The notes: generated by a model not told the origin, from the sequence alone. A stretch of DNA of 64,000 bases from an uncultured Chloroflexia bacterium (GCA_963749705.1 CAVVNQ010000003.1:32001-96000), one strand, 5' to 3'; counted from the stretch's first letter, positions 9,711-32,849 are shown. Translations and numbers: made by a program.

Positions 9711-10814
9711 CTAGCCACCGTCGGTCTCCGTCAGGTGGCGGAGGCGGTCGGCCTGGTCCGCCATCACCAGCGCATCGATCAGCGGGTCGAGCTGGCCCTC
9801 GAGCACGCCGGGCACGTTGTGGATGGTCAGGCCGATCCGGTGGTCCGTGACCCGGTTGTCGGGGAAGTTGTACGTCCGGATCTTCTCGGACCGGTCACCC
9901 GCGCCGACCATCGTCCGCCGCTCTGCGCTCTCGCGCTCACGCTGCTTCGCAAGCTCCAGGTCGTACAGCCGCGAGCGCAGCACGGCGAGCGCCTTTGCCT
10001 TGTTCTTGTGCTGGCTCTTCTCGTCCTGGATCTCCACGACCAGCCCGGTCGGGAGGTGGGTGATCCGGACCGCGGAGTCGGTGGTGTTGACGGACTGGCC
10101 GCCCGGTCCGCTGGACCGCTTGACGTCGATCCGGAGATCCCGCTCCTCGTCGATGTCGACCTCGACCTCGTCGGCCTCGGGCATCACGATCACGGTCGCG
10201 GTGCTGGTGTGGATCCGGCCGCTCGATTCGGTGGACGGGACCCGCTGGACGCGATGCACGCCGCCCTCGAACTTGAGCCGGCTGTAGGCGCCGTCGCCGG
10301 CAACCTCGAGGAACGCCTCCTTGATGCCGCCGATGCCGGTCTCGTTGAGGCTCATCAGGTCGGCGTGGAAGCGATGCTCCAGGGCGTAGCGCGTGTACAT
10401 GCGCAGCAGCTCGGCCGCGAACAGGGCCGCCTCCTCGCCGCCCGCGCCGGCCCGGATCTCGACGATCACGTTGCGGTCGTCATTGGGATCGCGCGGGAGG
10501 AGCGAGACCTTGAGGTCCTCGACCAGGCCCGTCTCGCGCGCCTCGAGCGACGCGATCTCGTCACGGGCCATCGCCTTGAGGTCGTCGTCGAGCTCCGCGT
10601 CGCGCATCTCGCGCGCGCCGGCCAGCTGCGCCCGGACGTCGATCAGCTCGCGGTAGGCGGCGACCACCGGCTCCAGGCGCGCCAGCTCACGGCCCAGCGT
10701 CCGCAGCTGGGCAGGATCCGAGTGCACCTCCGGCGTGCCCAGCCGCGCGGTGACGTCGTCGTACTGGCGCGCCACGCCGGCGAGCTTGGTGTCGAGGCTG
10801 TCGATGTCGGACAT
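9711..10814 (-). CDS. prfA: Peptide chain release factor 1
   Basis: GGQ motif, PST (PxT) stop-codon recognition motif, RTYNFP..RVTDHRI. Confidence 0.97.
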
Positions 10815-28136: not shown

Positions 28137-28838
28137 GTGGACGTGATCCCGGCCATCGACGTCGCCAACGGACGCTCGCGGGTCGTGTACTGGCCGGGCG
28201 CGGCGGCCGGCATCGGCGCGCCCACCGATCGTCCCGAGCAGATCGCGGAGCAGCTCGTGCACCAGGGCGCGAGGATCCTGCACCTGGTCGACTTCGACGG
28301 AGCGCGGCGCGCGGCGCCGGCGGACCTCGACGTCGTGGGCGCGGTCGCGGCGCGGGTGGCGGTCCCGCTCCAGGTCGCGGGCGGGCTCGAAGCCGCGGAT
28401 CATGTGCGACTGGCGTTTGCCGCAGGCGCGACGCGGGTGGTGCTCTCGATCGCGATCGTGGAGCATCCAGAGGCGCTCCGCGAATGCCTGGCCGTGGCCG
28501 GGGACTGGCTCGCCGTCGGCCTGGATCCCCGACCGGAGCGGCTCGCGGCCTTCCCCTGGGCTCGCGCCGTGCCGCCCACGATCGACTCGCTGGTCGAGGA
28601 GCTCGTCGGGCAGGGCGTCCACCGGCTCGTCCTCAGCCACGGTGGCGCCACGCCGGACGCCACGCTCCTGACCACGCTGGTGAACCGCCACGACGCCGAC
28701 ATCCTCGTCGCCGGGGGTGTTGCCGACCTCGACGGCATCCGTCGGCTGCGCGACGCCGGCATCACCGGCCTCATCCTCGGAGAGGCGATCCTCTCCGGTG
28801 CCATCGAGCTCCCACGCGCCCTGGAGGCCGCCGCATGA
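28137..28838 (+). CDS. Divergent HisA/HisF-family TIM-barrel protein
   Basis: [14 protein letters not shown] and QVAGG are present, but the TD.xxDG loop is missing. Confidence 0.8.
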
Positions 28839-29542
28839 TTTCCCGCATCGTCGCCCGCGGCCTTGCCGCGCTCGTCGTCCCGATGCTAGTCGCCGCCTGC
28901 AGCGGCGGAGGCGCCGCGGTGCCGACGGTGGCGCCCGCTTCGGCCGCGGCCTCGTCACAGGCGGCGCCAACCGGGACCGCGGCGACCGCCTGTCCGACCG
29001 CCCAGCCGGCTGCGTTGAGCGCCGATGACGTGCGCACCGTCACCATCGACACCGAGAAGGGCGCCATCGTCATCGAGGTCCGAGGGTCGCTGTCCCCGAT
29101 CGCGACCGGAAACTTCGTGGCACTCGCGTCCTGCGGCTACTACGACGGCGTCGTGTTCCACCGGGTCGCAACGCTCCAGGACGGCACCCCGTTCGTGATC
29201 CAGGGCGGCGACGGCCAGTACGGTCGGGTCCCGACCGTCGACCCCAGCCGCGTGGGCACCGGCGGTCCCGGGTACGCCATCCAGGACGAACCCGTGACGG
29301 CCACCTATCAGCGAGGGACCGTCGCGATGGCCCGATCTGCGGCCCCCAACTCCGTGGGATCGCAGTTCTTCATCGTCCTCGACGACCGCGCCCGCGACGT
29401 TCTCGCCTCGTACAACACCTACCAGATCATCGGCACCGTGACCTCGGGGATGGACGTGGCGGACGCGATCTACGCGGCCGCCGATGCCGAGATCCCGACC
29501 AATCCGATCCCGATGACCAAGGTCACCGTCAGCACCCCGTAA
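28835..29542 (+). CDS. Cyclophilin-type peptidyl-prolyl isomerase, lipoprotein
   Basis: Lipobox VAAC; YYDG..FHRV, FVIQGGD, AMAR and SQFFI motifs. Confidence 0.92.
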
Positions 29543-29570: not shown

Positions 29571-30059
29571 ATGACCCGAGCCATCATCGCGACCGAAGCC
29601 GGCACCATCGAGGCTGACCTGTTCACCGACGGCGCCCCGAAGGCCGCCGGCAACTTCGTCAAGCTCGCCAAGCAGGGCTTCTACGACGACGTCATCTTCC
29701 ACCGCGTCATCCCCGGATTCATGATCCAGGGCGGCGACGGGGAGTTCGGCAAGAAGGCGTCGCTCAACACCGGGCGCGTCGGCACCGGCGGACCCGGCTA
29801 CAAGTTCGACGACGAGCCGTTCACCGGGAGCTATGTCCGCGGCACGCTCGCGATGGCGAATGCCGGGCCGAACACGAACGGCTCGCAGTTCTTCATCATG
29901 CACGCGGACTACGCGCTGCCCAAGAGCTACACGATCTTCGGCCTGGTGACCAAGGGGATCGACGTCGTTGACGCCATTGCCAGCGCGCCGCGCAACAGCC
30001 GTGATCTGCCCGATGCGCCGGTTGCGATGACCTCGGTGACGATCGTCGACGAGGAGTAA
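29571..30059 (+). CDS. Cyclophilin-type peptidyl-prolyl isomerase, cytoplasmic
   Basis: [14 protein letters not shown] and [16 protein letters not shown]; AAGGAG RBS. Confidence 0.96.
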
Positions 30060-30230
30060 CCGCGGCCGCGAGCTGACGTCCTGCGCACGCGGGCGCGCTC
30101 CGGCGATCGCCACGTCCGGCCTGCGCTCCGGTCGTCTCGAAACCGGTCGGCAACCGGAACGTTAAGCAATTTTCACCGAAGCGGCGGACAAAACCCTTTC
30201 CTAATCCGCACCTGCGCAGTAGGATATCGA

Positions 30231-30407
30231 CGCTGCAAGTCAGCCAGCGCTGCCCCAGCATCAAGGTCATGGGTAGGTAGGGTTAGGGTAGTCGGTTCAG
30301 CCGACGCGATAGATGACCTTGGCGCGCGGCAGAAGGTCCGCCCTCGGGTGGACACCTTCACCGGGACAGCAACGAGGCGGCTCCTTCGGGAGCCGCCTCG
30401 TACGTTT
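30231..30407 (+). ncRNA. Candidate structured non-coding RNA (family not recognised)
   Basis: Putative -10 TAGGAT at 30220-30225; nested helices (CAAGGTCAT/ATGACCTTG, GTCGGT/GCCGAC, GAAGGT/ACCTTC); ends in a 13-bp UUCG hairpin; no plausible ORF. Confidence 0.55.
30372..30407 (+). terminator. Intrinsic terminator-like hairpin
   Basis: ACGAGGCGGCTCC-TTCG-GGAGCCGCCTCGT perfect stem, followed by ACGTTT. Confidence 0.75.
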
Positions 30408-30451
30408 ACCGGGCGGCGGAGGGTCGAATCGGCCGCGCTCTGCGCGCGGAA

Positions 30452-30687
30452 GCGCTCCCCGTCAGATGCGCTCGCCCTGTCAGATGCGCTCCCCCTGTCA
30501 GATGTCCGGCACGCGAGCGTTCGCCGTCGTCGCGGAGCATCACCGGAACGCGCATCCCCCCTGAGGTCGCTCCCGGAGCGCCGGTCCGTGCACGAATGGA
30601 ACGCTCGCCGAGCTGCGCTCCGTTGGAAAGCCGGCCGTACCGGCGCCAATCGACGGCGAACGCCCGGCTTGTGGACATCTGGCAGGG
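30452..30687. mobile_element. MITE/REP-like element with 37-bp imperfect terminal inverted repeats and a triplicated left end
   Basis: CCCTGTCAGATGTCC-N9-GCGTTCGCCGTCG (30493-30529) pairs with CGACGGCGAACGC-N9-GGACATCTGGCAGGG (30651-30687). GCGCTC..GTCAGAT occurs three times at 30452-30503. Confidence 0.55.
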
Positions 30688-30809
30688 ACGGAGGCCCGGG
30701 CGAGGAGGAGCGACTGGGCAACGGCCGCGGACCGAGCAACGCGGATCCGGGACGTGGATCAATTCATCCCGCAGTGCGTCCCGCTCGACCCGGGGGCACA
30801 ATCCGCGAC

Positions 30810-32849
30810 ATGGCAGCCGTTCCTTCCCGAAGCCCCGGTCAGGGCGACACCCCGGAGCTCCTGTGGTCGCCACCCGCCGACGTGCGTGAGCGATCACGCA
30901 TCGGTCGCTACCTTGCCTGGCTGGAGTCCACCAGCGATCTTCGATTCGATGGCTACGACGCGCTGTGGCGCTGGTCGGTGGATGAACCGGGCGCGTTCTG
31001 GCAGTCCGTGTGGGATCACTTCAGGGTGGCCGCCGCGACGCCGCCGGAGACGGCACTCGCGGATGCATCGATGCCCGGCGCACGCTGGTTTCCGGGCGCG
31101 ACGCTCAACTATGCGGCCCACGAGCTGGCGCTCCCCGGTCGCGACGGCTCGGACGTGGTGGTCGTCGCGCAGTCGCAGACGCGGCTACCCATCGAGCTGA
31201 CCGCCGACGAGCTGCGGGACGCCGTCCGAAGGTGTCGCGCGGGCCTGGTCCGCCTGGGCGTGCGGCGAGGTGATCGCGTCGCTGCGCTGCTGCCCAACAT
31301 CCCGGAGACGCTCGTCGCCTTCCTCGCCAGCGCGTCGCTGGGAGCCGTGTGGTCGTCGTGCGCCCCGGAGTTCGGGGTGCGGGCGATCATCGACCGCTTC
31401 GCCCAGATCGAGCCCGTGGTCCTGCTCACGATCGACGGCTATCGCTACGGCGACCGCGACATCGACCGGCGCGACGCGGTGGCCGAGATCCGTGCCGCGC
31501 TGCCGACCGTTCGCGCGACCGTGGCCGTGCGGTACCTCGAGCCGGACGCCGAGGACGCCAGGGGCGACGCCGGCCGAACGACGACCGGCGAGACCATTCC
31601 ATGGTCGGCGCTGCTGGGCGAGCGCGGGCCGCTGGCGTTCGAGCCGGTCCCGTTCGACCATCCGCTGTACATCCTGTTCTCGTCGGGCACGACCGGCCTT
31701 CCGAAGCCGATCGTCCACGGGCACGGTGGCATCCTGCTCGAGCACCTCAAGGCGATTGCCCTCCACATGGACCTCGGTCCGGATTCGCGCTTCTTCTGGT
31801 TCACGACGACCGGCTGGATGATGTGGAACTACCTGGTGTCGGGGCTCGCGGTCGGGGCCACGATCGTCCTGTTCGATGGCAACCCGGCGTGGCCGGACCT
31901 CATGACGCTGTGGCGGCTCGCAGCCGAGACGCGCACGACCTACCTGGGCACGAGCGCGCCATTCCTGATGGCGTGCCGATCCGCCGGCCTCGAGCCGGGG
32001 GCGATGCTCGACCTGTCGGCGGTGCGGGCCGTCGGCTCGACCGGCGCACCGCTGGCCGCAGCCGGGTTCCATTGGGTCCGCGACGCGATCTCGGCCGCCA
32101 TCCCCGTCCATTCGTTCAGCGGCGGGACGGACCTGTGCACCGGGTTCCTCGGGCCGTCCCCGCTCGTGCCGGTGTGGGCGGGCGAGATCAGCTGCCGGAT
32201 GCTGGGCGCGAAGGTCGAGGCGTACGACGAGGACGGCCGGTCGGTCGTCGGCCGGCAGGGCGAGCTCGTGATCACGGCCCCGATGCCGTCGATGCCCGTC
32301 GCGTTCTGGGGCGACCCGGACGGCGAGCGGCTCCGGTCGGCGTACTTCGAGCCGTGGCCCGGCGTCTGGCGCCACGGCGACTGGGTCACCATCACCGAGC
32401 GCGGCTCGTGCGTGATCACGGGGCGCAGCGACGCGACCCTCAACCGCGGTGGCGTCCGGCTCGGGACGGCAGAGTTCTACACGGTGGTGGAGGCAATCCC
32501 CGAGATTGCGGACAGTCTCGTCGTCCACCTCGAGGACGAGGCCGGCGGCGCCGGGGAGCTGCTGCTGTTCGTCTCGCTCCGCGACGGGGCGGCGCTCGAC
32601 GATGCGCTCGTCGCCCGGATCCGCTCGACCCTCCGCGCGGAGCTCTCGCCCCGTCACGTGCCGGACGCGATCCATGCGGTGCCGGCGATCCCGCGGACGC
32701 TGTCGGGCAAGAAGGTCGAGGTGCCCGTCAAGCGGATCCTGCTGGGCCAGCGCCCGGATGTGGCGGCATCCCGGGATGCGCTCGCCGACCCGCGGGCCCT
32801 CGATCCGTTCGAGGCGCTCGCGGCGAAGCGACCCGGCCGCGGGCGATAG
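30810..32849 (+). CDS. Acetoacetate--CoA ligase
   Basis: WFPGATLNYA, FSSGTTGLPKPIVH, TGWMMWN, SGGTD, W.HGD, GRSDATLNRGGVRLG and TLSGKK motifs. Confidence 0.94.
   Translation: MAAVPSRSPGQGDTPELLWSPPADVRERSRIGRYLAWLESTSDLRFDGYDALWRWSVDEPGAFWQSVWDHFRVAAATPPETALADASMPGARWFPGATLNYAAHELALPGRDGSDVVVVAQSQTRLPIELTADELRDAVRRCRAGLVRLGVRRGDRVAALLPNIPETLVAFLASASLGAVWSSCAPEFGVRAIIDRFAQIEPVVLLTIDGYRYGDRDIDRRDAVAEIRAALPTVRATVAVRYLEPDAEDARGDAGRTTTGETIPWSALLGERGPLAFEPVPFDHPLYILFSSGTTGLPKPIVHGHGGILLEHLKAIALHMDLGPDSRFFWFTTTGWMMWNYLVSGLAVGATIVLFDGNPAWPDLMTLWRLAAETRTTYLGTSAPFLMACRSAGLEPGAMLDLSAVRAVGSTGAPLAAAGFHWVRDAISAAIPVHSFSGGTDLCTGFLGPSPLVPVWAGEISCRMLGAKVEAYDEDGRSVVGRQGELVITAPMPSMPVAFWGDPDGERLRSAYFEPWPGVWRHGDWVTITERGSCVITGRSDATLNRGGVRLGTAEFYTVVEAIPEIADSLVVHLEDEAGGAGELLLFVSLRDGAALDDALVARIRSTLRAELSPRHVPDAIHAVPAIPRTLSGKKVEVPVKRILLGQRPDVAASRDALADPRALDPFEALAAKRPGRGR

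Follow-up and report, generated by a model that had tools for sequence, protein, structure and literature searches.

Directly downstream of a tandem pair of cyclophilin genes, a 64,000-nucleotide stretch of DNA from an uncultured Chloroflexia bacterium (GCA_963749705.1 CAVVNQ010000003.1:32001-96000; the whole stretch is called the window) carries a conserved block at positions 30158-30407 which, judged by comparison with its relatives, is a real, selected and structured RNA of a widespread family. We propose with moderate confidence that this block is a stand-alone, plus-strand gene for a trans-acting small RNA (sRNA) downstream of cyclophilin, in which a G-rich strand of an internal loop would form the recognition surface. 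Its kind, the orphan bacterial structured sRNA, is familiar; its family is outside Rfam 15 and appears to be new.

A structured RNA had been predicted at this site from the window sequence alone, and a check of the sequence found all helices and motifs named in this original prediction where it had placed them. The minimum free energy (MFE) fold of 30225-30407, calculated with RNAfold, has -87.0 kcal/mol (z = -3.94), reproduces all named helices and was not matched by any of 200 shuffled sequences. In this fold, a small 5' hairpin (P0) would be followed by a three-way junction closed by helix P1; P2 would open into a large, asymmetric internal loop on which the short hairpin P2a sits as a cap, and P3 would be a variable hairpin. 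Downstream of the junction lies a strong 3' hairpin of -29.5 kcal/mol when folded alone. The region had also been described as an island of lower GC content that is free of open reading frames (ORFs). The lower GC content is evident, with 0.55-0.63 in 100-nt segments starting at 30150-30250 vs about 0.70-0.75 in the surroundings; the absence of ORFs does not hold, as mechanical ORFs overlap the region (Table 1). The G-rich 20-mer at 30271-30290 occurs once in the window with up to three mismatches allowed (0.00 expected), and neither this search nor a covariance model revealed a second copy of the element in the 64 kb.

Relatives at the DNA level were sought by scanning one genome per species with the synthetase encoded downstream of the element as query, which returned 80 loci (1.5 Mb). 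The two best synthetase loci, L001 and L003, with protein identities of 76% and 74%, respectively, belong to genome bins of Chloroflexota. Both contain the element, with 88.7% identity over 221 nt in L001 (nhmmer, E = 1e-40) and 88.2% identity over 263 nt in L003 (E = 5e-51). No further copies were found in the 80 loci by blastn, nhmmer, the three-copy covariance model R1 or a six-frame antisense hidden Markov model. The left boundary of conservation is sharp in all three DNA copies and coincides with the box AACGTTAAGC at 30158; on the right, conservation stops about 20 nt past the 3' hairpin, and neither flank aligns. Among the three genomes the RNA part is 90-93% identical and the 70 nt upstream of it 79-83%, compared with 83-89% for first and second codon positions and 47-54% for four-fold-type third positions of the synthetase. 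The element is thus more constrained than the adjoining protein.

The pattern of substitutions in the three DNA copies supports the predicted structure. The RNAalifold consensus contains 57 pairs, and 159 of 159 pair cells hold standard pairs, whereas just 31-45% were paired in controls with slid alignments. Two-sided compensatory pairs occur in P2 at 30264-30319 and 30266-30317, and four one-sided changes are compatible via G.U, three of them in P3. None of the five pairs of P0 varies, and the seven pairs of P1 are kept. Since the P3 changes stay paired through G.U on the plus strand only and would be C.A mismatches on the minus strand, the plus strand is favoured; the same conclusion follows from the conserved boxes, which lie only to the left of the structure, the right flank being unconserved. 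In L001, a 2-nt deletion in the P3 loop, with conserved nucleotides on either side, shifts every frame, which shows that the element is not coding. A small protein-coding gene was accordingly rejected: no frame is kept under purifying selection, and the two ORFs scanned, 30173..30739 (-) and 30406..30897 (-), gave no Pfam match. With all pairs kept and the frames broken by this indel, the expectation of a conserved structured RNA rather than a protein gene was borne out. A run of N at L001 9866-9911 covers exactly the expected site of the 3' hairpin. Due to this masking, the hairpin can be compared in only two DNA copies, the window and L003, where its sequence is identical.

A much wider family became visible through protein databases. 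The query was the open antisense frame across the RNA (minus strand, 30176-30406 of the window), since gene callers are expected to predict spurious ORFs across homologous loci. The first search gave 5 matches, a search against every cluster representative 44 matches at E<=1e-3, and a profile search 34 matches, of which 16 were new. After four internally repetitive false positives had been dropped before counting (P0015, P0023, P0024 and P0028), the total was 57 spurious ORFs from other contigs. They have in common a core free of repeats, which spans P2, P2a and the G-rich strand. Their residues were mapped to the codons of the window and the certain bases converted into pseudo-nucleotides, which yielded 54 distinct rows; the interior of P3 was excluded. 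Of the pair cells determined in these back-translated rows, 457 are paired and 58 unpaired, and slid controls reached 16-41% paired. The P2 pair 30261-30322 covaries (UG in 6 rows, CG in 4, GC in 2, GU in 5, unpaired in 6), as do the P2a pair 30292-30304 (U-A in the window, U.G in 4 rows, C-G in 8 rows) and the pair 30376-30397 of the 3' hairpin (G-C in 10 rows, A-U in 8 rows). The wider family keeps the helices and supplies covarying pairs in addition to the compensatory pairs of the DNA copies. P1 is paired in 91 of 91 determined cells with zero variation, and the base of P3 in 52 of 52, while the tip of P3 differs in length among relatives by -3, -2, -1 and +3 nt. The P2a loop position 30297 is variable among the rows, and the internal-loop position 30307 is occupied either by C (10 rows) or by U (31 rows), so that G30277 stays pairable. 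Among the repetitive ORFs that were dropped, P0015 and P0023 contain 5 and 8 tandem units, respectively, that faintly resemble the reading of the G-rich loop and have no convincing Pfam domain; these repeats could be an unrelated tandem DNA repeat.

The RNA is most strongly constrained in the internal loop between P2 and P2a. The G-rich strand of this loop, 30271-30290, has no pairs in the centroid fold and is largely free of them in the MFE and consensus folds. The three DNA copies differ here by two substitutions only, both between G runs. In 49 back-translated rows, all determined positions, every G included, are invariant except 30279 (A in 31 rows, U in 16, C in 2) and 30285 (A in 48, U in 1). 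A repeated UAGG, one of the motifs considered in the original prediction, is not what is conserved: both substitutions in the DNA relatives strike UAG triplets and spare the G runs. We suppose that the internal loop is the functional centre of the RNA, its 20-nt G-rich 5' strand being near-invariant across roughly 50 lineages in which the surrounding helices compensate.

Table 1 Features of the element and its surroundings in the window.
Feature	Position	Strand	Remarks
Cyclophilin-domain gene, first of tandem pair	28484-29542		352 aa
Cyclophilin-type peptidyl-prolyl isomerase gene	29571..30059	+	Pfam Pro_isomerase, E = 5.7e-42
Mechanical ORF overlapping the region	29896..30270	-
Conserved A/T-rich upstream box AACGTTAAGCAATTTTCAC	30158..30176	+	Left edge of the conserved block
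Mechanical ORF overlapping the region	30173..30739	-
-10-like hexamer TAGGAT	30220-30225	+	Putative promoter
P0, small 5' hairpin, CGCTG 30231-35 / CAGCG 30245-49	30231..30249	+	In MFE fold and RNAalifold consensus
P1, closing helix, GCTGCCCC 30249-56 / GGGACAGC 30363-70	30249..30256 with 30363..30370	+
P2	30258..30270 with 30313..30325	+	Compensatory pairs
9-bp helix, CAAGGTCAT / ATGACCTTG	30262-70 with 30313-21	+	Part of P2
G-rich internal-loop strand, G runs of 3, 2, 3, 3	30271..30290	+	Proposed recognition surface
P2a, sub-hairpin	30291..30305	+	Invariant in the three DNA copies
3' strand of internal loop, GCGATAG	30306..30312	+	Invariant in the three DNA copies
Mechanical ORF overlapping the region	30313..30564	+
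P3, hairpin with GAAGGT..ACCTTC stem	30332..30359	+	Conserved base, variable tip
Possible start codon	30348	+	In frame with the next gene
13-bp 3' hairpin with TTCG loop (30372-30401), then ACGTTT	30372..30407	+	Terminator-like; probably also a conserved structural element
Acetoacetyl-CoA-synthetase-like gene	30810..32849	+	Pfam AMP-binding, ACAS_N, AMP-binding_C

The hexamer TAGGAT upstream of P0 may be the -10 box of the RNA gene. All three DNA copies have it unchanged, with variable sequence in the 8 nt that precede it, and in 11 back-translated rows positions 30225-26 are fixed and 30222-23 variable, as would be expected of a -10 box of the TANNNT type. An RNA of about 175 nt would result if, as is most likely, transcription starts about 7 nt past TAGGAT (near 30232) and stops behind the 13-bp TTCG hairpin (near 30405). 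A role of the 3' hairpin as a mere terminator is not supported. Its sequence is kept in distant members together with one compensatory exchange of G-C for A-U, unlike in ordinary terminators, and it is therefore probably also a structural part of the RNA. The A/T-rich upstream box, which occurs only once in the window, is possibly a promoter-distal element or a regulator site; its antisense reading (KFLNL-type) is found again in distant ORFs. We hypothesize that the RNA acts in trans via the exposed G-rich strand, and its likeliest task would be base-pairing with C/U-rich stretches of target RNAs, like the seeds of terminator-ended bacterial sRNAs.

Several observations weigh against this proposal. 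The DNA-level homologues number three, and the family-wide evidence consists of back-translated ORFs, in whose rows a third of the positions (the third codon positions) are undetermined, indels are ignored and the rows are interrelated. In the middle of P2, most distant members (33 rows) have a U.C mismatch at 30267-30316; of the 58 unpaired cells, 35 belong to this one pair, which is U-A in the window and either U.C or C.C in distant members. Column shuffling is weak with three sequences, and 66 of 500 shuffles reached the observed covariation; the observed substitutions were for this reason placed at random instead, and this control, which supports the structure, left no pair broken in only 0.2-0.4% of 20,000 trials per comparison (three comparisons that are not independent). 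A consensus scan detected 0 sigma-70 promoters and 0 canonical terminators at the element, and a -35 match is absent. The 3' hairpin is followed by just three U and fails the canonical terminator scan because a U run is lacking. Between cyclophilin and the RNA, no terminator-like fold was better than shuffles (z = 0.26 and -0.64); due to this finding and the synteny, the RNA could be co-transcribed with cyclophilin. The G-rich loop pairs with the 5' regions of the neighbouring genes at background level, with -17.7, -17.8 and -24.7 kcal/mol for the synthetases against a background of -21.1 ± 3.05 (n = 914), and with -22.8 and -22.6 kcal/mol for cyclophilin in the window. The relatives gave -29.8 (L003) and -26.0 kcal/mol for cyclophilin at inconsistent positions, the L003 value being the sole exception to background and its position unshared. 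Furthermore, a G-rich seed is unusual in sRNAs that target ribosome-binding sites. Pairing of the G-rich loop with its own upstream C/U-rich block was rejected as well: the RNAalifold alternative has no compensatory pairs and five pairs that are broken in one copy each, and the energy ranks 199 of 3,635 background tiles.

How the element relates to its neighbours bears directly on two other explanations. For the spurious ORFs, the upstream neighbour was testable where at least 75 residues extend beyond the loop (n = 18) and the downstream neighbour where at least 60 residues do so (n = 36). The conserved partner is the upstream cyclophilin gene, while the downstream gene varies and the synthetase as neighbour is limited to the close clade. 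Cyclophilin is the same-strand gene directly upstream of the RNA in the window and in the collinear L003, and the antisense of the window cyclophilin was matched in 12 of the 18 testable ORFs (E<=1e-3), so that the hint to look downstream of cyclophilin proved correct. It is conceivable, though in our view unlikely, that the structured region is the 3' untranslated region (UTR) of the cyclophilin mRNA or an sRNA cut from it, made from the cyclophilin promoter and with the upstream boxes as RNA or processing signals. The synteny would be explained in this way, and so would the missing terminator-like fold and the missing canonical promoter. In L001 a 4.6-kb insertion, encoding an ECF-type sigma factor, an MFS transporter and an FAD/BBE oxidase, separates cyclophilin from the RNA block. 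The three inserted genes share its strand, so the RNA again lies behind a co-directional gene, the stop codon of which falls within the upstream box; yet the block has persisted there behind a different gene, 4.6 kb off cyclophilin, and cyclophilin was not seen in 6 of the 18 testable ORFs. Against a 3' UTR also speak the -10 pattern of TAGGAT, with outer positions fixed and inner ones variable, and the lack of supported pairing in the 70 nt upstream, where the predicted alternative has no compensatory and five broken pairs. We find it very doubtful that the element regulates the synthetase gene in cis, as a riboswitch- or attenuator-like leader in which the junction would be the sensor and the hairpin would terminate transcription prematurely. 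The RNA lies upstream of the synthetase on the same strand in 3 of 3 DNA copies, stays with it in L001 despite the upstream insertion, and has its hairpin about 45-90 nt from the start codon in two close relatives; when the RNA of the window or of L003 is folded in truncated form, a 12-bp helix forms between the 5' side of P3 and the 5' arm of the hairpin. This alternative pairing, however, gains about 3 kcal/mol and must invade a stable local hairpin (-29.5 kcal/mol). The hairpin-to-start spacer is unconserved (in the two DNA copies without masking, 409 nt in the window vs about 134 nt in L003), and a short A/T-containing motif by the start codon suggests that the synthetase has its own promoter. 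Among the 36 ORFs that reach far enough, the synthetase antisense follows in only 4 (E<=1e-20), a reverse-complement tRNA signature in 7 and fusion to Pfam-confirmed convergent genes (MFS, glycosyltransferase) in 2; 23 have no assignment. That the downstream gene varies across the family speaks against a leader of the synthetase and in favour of a separate RNA gene. The original prediction had also excluded a leader, but its argument from distance is weak, as the next gene begins about 45-150 nt past the hairpin in relatives.

Two further explanations keep the RNA gene and change what it presents. The internal loop could be a folded platform, either a two-tier G-quadruplex or a loop-E-like irregular helix, that binds a protein or small ligand and makes the RNA a scaffold, sponge or sensor; we regard this as rather improbable. 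Within 30271-30288 there are four closely spaced, conserved G runs of 3, 2, 3 and 3, in which no determined G ever varies; 30279 and 30285, the positions that do vary, fall between the runs. Both loop strands are conserved jointly with P2a, as in a tertiary module, and irregular pairing of the first six loop bases with the 3' strand is possible, the change from G-C to G.U at 30277-30307 being compatible with it. However, with only three GGG runs and one GG, a quadruplex would have two tiers at most. Neither for the whole RNA nor for the isolated loop is one predicted by ViennaRNA when G-quadruplex energies are included, which does not support the G-quadruplex of the original prediction. The GGA motif of CsrA-type binding is absent from the loop, and beyond the cyclophilin synteny no linked gene for a partner protein was found. 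The narrower version, in which the G-rich loop between P2 and P2a is a G-quadruplex-like or loop-E-like platform for one specific small molecule or protein, we consider more improbable still. If true, the element would be a naturally occurring sensor or scaffold RNA that is built on a quadruplex and has a genetic coupling to cyclophilin, and we know of no description of such an RNA class in bacteria. It is highly improbable that the functional transcript comes from the minus strand and, in the manner of the 6C-type sRNAs of Actinobacteria, exposes a loop rich in C. In favour of this reading, the minus strand is predicted to fold just as well (z = -4.01), and the 3' hairpin is nearly palindromic and could be used by either strand. 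Nevertheless, the G.U pairs in P3 and at 30277-30307 would turn into C.A, the side right of the hairpin, where a promoter would have to lie, is unconserved and the left side is conserved, and Rfam 6C is matched on neither strand.

The proposed trans-acting sRNA can be compared with several known systems. With terminator-ended trans-acting sRNAs, among them GcvB with its G/U-rich seed, it shares the intergenic position, the length of about 175 nt, the stable 3' hairpin, lineage-variable flanking genes and a conserved scaffold around one near-invariant unpaired stretch; it differs from them in its very short U tail and in the location of this stretch, which is in an internal loop and not in a 5' tail or apical loop. 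Like CpxQ and DapZ, which are 3'-UTR-derived or gene-linked sRNAs, it lies directly behind a same-strand protein gene with synteny kept over long distances (12/18); unlike them, it has its own -10-like box and persists in L001 behind another gene. The 6C RNA of Actinobacteria, which we take to be Rfam RF01066, is also a small structured RNA of high-G+C bacteria with strongly biased loop composition, but in our element the loop is G-rich on the supported strand, the architecture is another one, and 6C is not among the seven Rfam matches at E<=10. As in terminating riboswitches, a multi-helix junction with invariant unpaired bases is followed by a strong hairpin and, in the close clade, by a same-strand gene; however, the downstream gene is unconserved, no convincing antiterminator is apparent and no known class was matched. 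CsrB/RsmZ sponges likewise carry repeated short purine-rich motifs in unpaired RNA, but distribute them over many hairpins, whereas here there is a single loop. A sponge of this type was rejected, as it requires multiple loop GGA motifs and 30271-30290 contains none; a match to RsmW was weak (15.2 bits vs a gathering score of 52) and on the opposite strand. The irregular purine-rich internal loop between two helices, with G runs on one strand, finally recalls loop E of 5S rRNA and the G-quadruplex aptamers Mango and Spinach. Together with the opposite strand, the first six loop bases look like one half of loop E from bacterial 5S rRNA, and tandem G.A, U.A and A.G juxtapositions are possible beside P2. 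We treat both resemblances as leads only; in contrast to these RNAs, no quadruplex is predicted and the element is not linked to ribosomal genes.

In its behaviour the element resembles an orphan class of structured RNA, with members in at least some 50 contigs that apparently come from uncultured bacteria. Earlier orphan RNA classes proved to be new regulators, parts of ribonucleoproteins or sensors. To our knowledge, the RNA biology of high-G+C soil lineages such as these Chloroflexota is almost unexplored. Further work can build on a covariance model, a structure and a signature in the sequence by which more members are recovered.

As the original prediction had supposed, the element matches no family of Rfam 15. 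The covariance-model search suggested there gave, at gathering scores, two tRNAs only in the whole 64 kb, and at E<=10 the region 30000-30850 had 7 matches of at most 18.5 bits vs gathering scores of 39-270; six of these lie on or overlap the 3' hairpin and the remaining one is upstream of the block. 6S RNA was rejected, since it was not matched in Rfam even at E<=10 and the consensus fold is a three-way junction plus 3' hairpin. Ms1 and the 6S-like RNAs of Actinobacteria were rejected because the flanking genes and sizes given for them in PMC9130861 differ. A blastn search (11-base words) of 72,556 plasmid and 50,697 phage records gave no match to the element, and a mobile, plasmid or phage element was rejected on this basis. 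A full-text literature search, supplements aside, that included PMC11109978, PMC8632094 and a 2026 bioRxiv preprint on noncoding sequence space yielded no description of the element.

Some observations concern the genes and spacers around the RNA. In the first cyclophilin gene (28484-29542) the cyclophilin domain comprises residues 186-349, and the N-terminal ~185 residues are without a Pfam match. In the seven ORFs with a tRNA signature (P0009, P0033, P0034, P0041, P0050, P0052 and P0059), the reverse-complement tRNA reading precedes the antisense of the RNA, which places the tRNA about 60-70 nt 3' of the hairpin on the same strand; an unverified back-translation by hand suggests tRNA-Arg(CCG). 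The long spacer of the window (30420-30800) looks like an inserted or expanded repeat element, with three tandem 18-nt repeats at 30452-30505 and a 37-nt inverted repeat at 30493-30529 / 30651-30687 that is 81% complementary; the ORF P0001 from another contig runs through a related long spacer. Exactly 7 nt 5' of the synthetase start, the window (30797-30812) and L003 (9970-9985) share the motif (C/G)ACAAT, a spacing that corresponds to the -10 box geometry of a leaderless mRNA. In L001 the motif (9963-9968) lies about 64 nt before the first in-frame ATG. A 15-nt direct duplication is located just 5' of the L001 synthetase start (9973-10002), and the tblastn match of the L001 synthetase begins 5' of the first start codon that is in frame, a hint of a frameshift or an assembly error in this genome bin.

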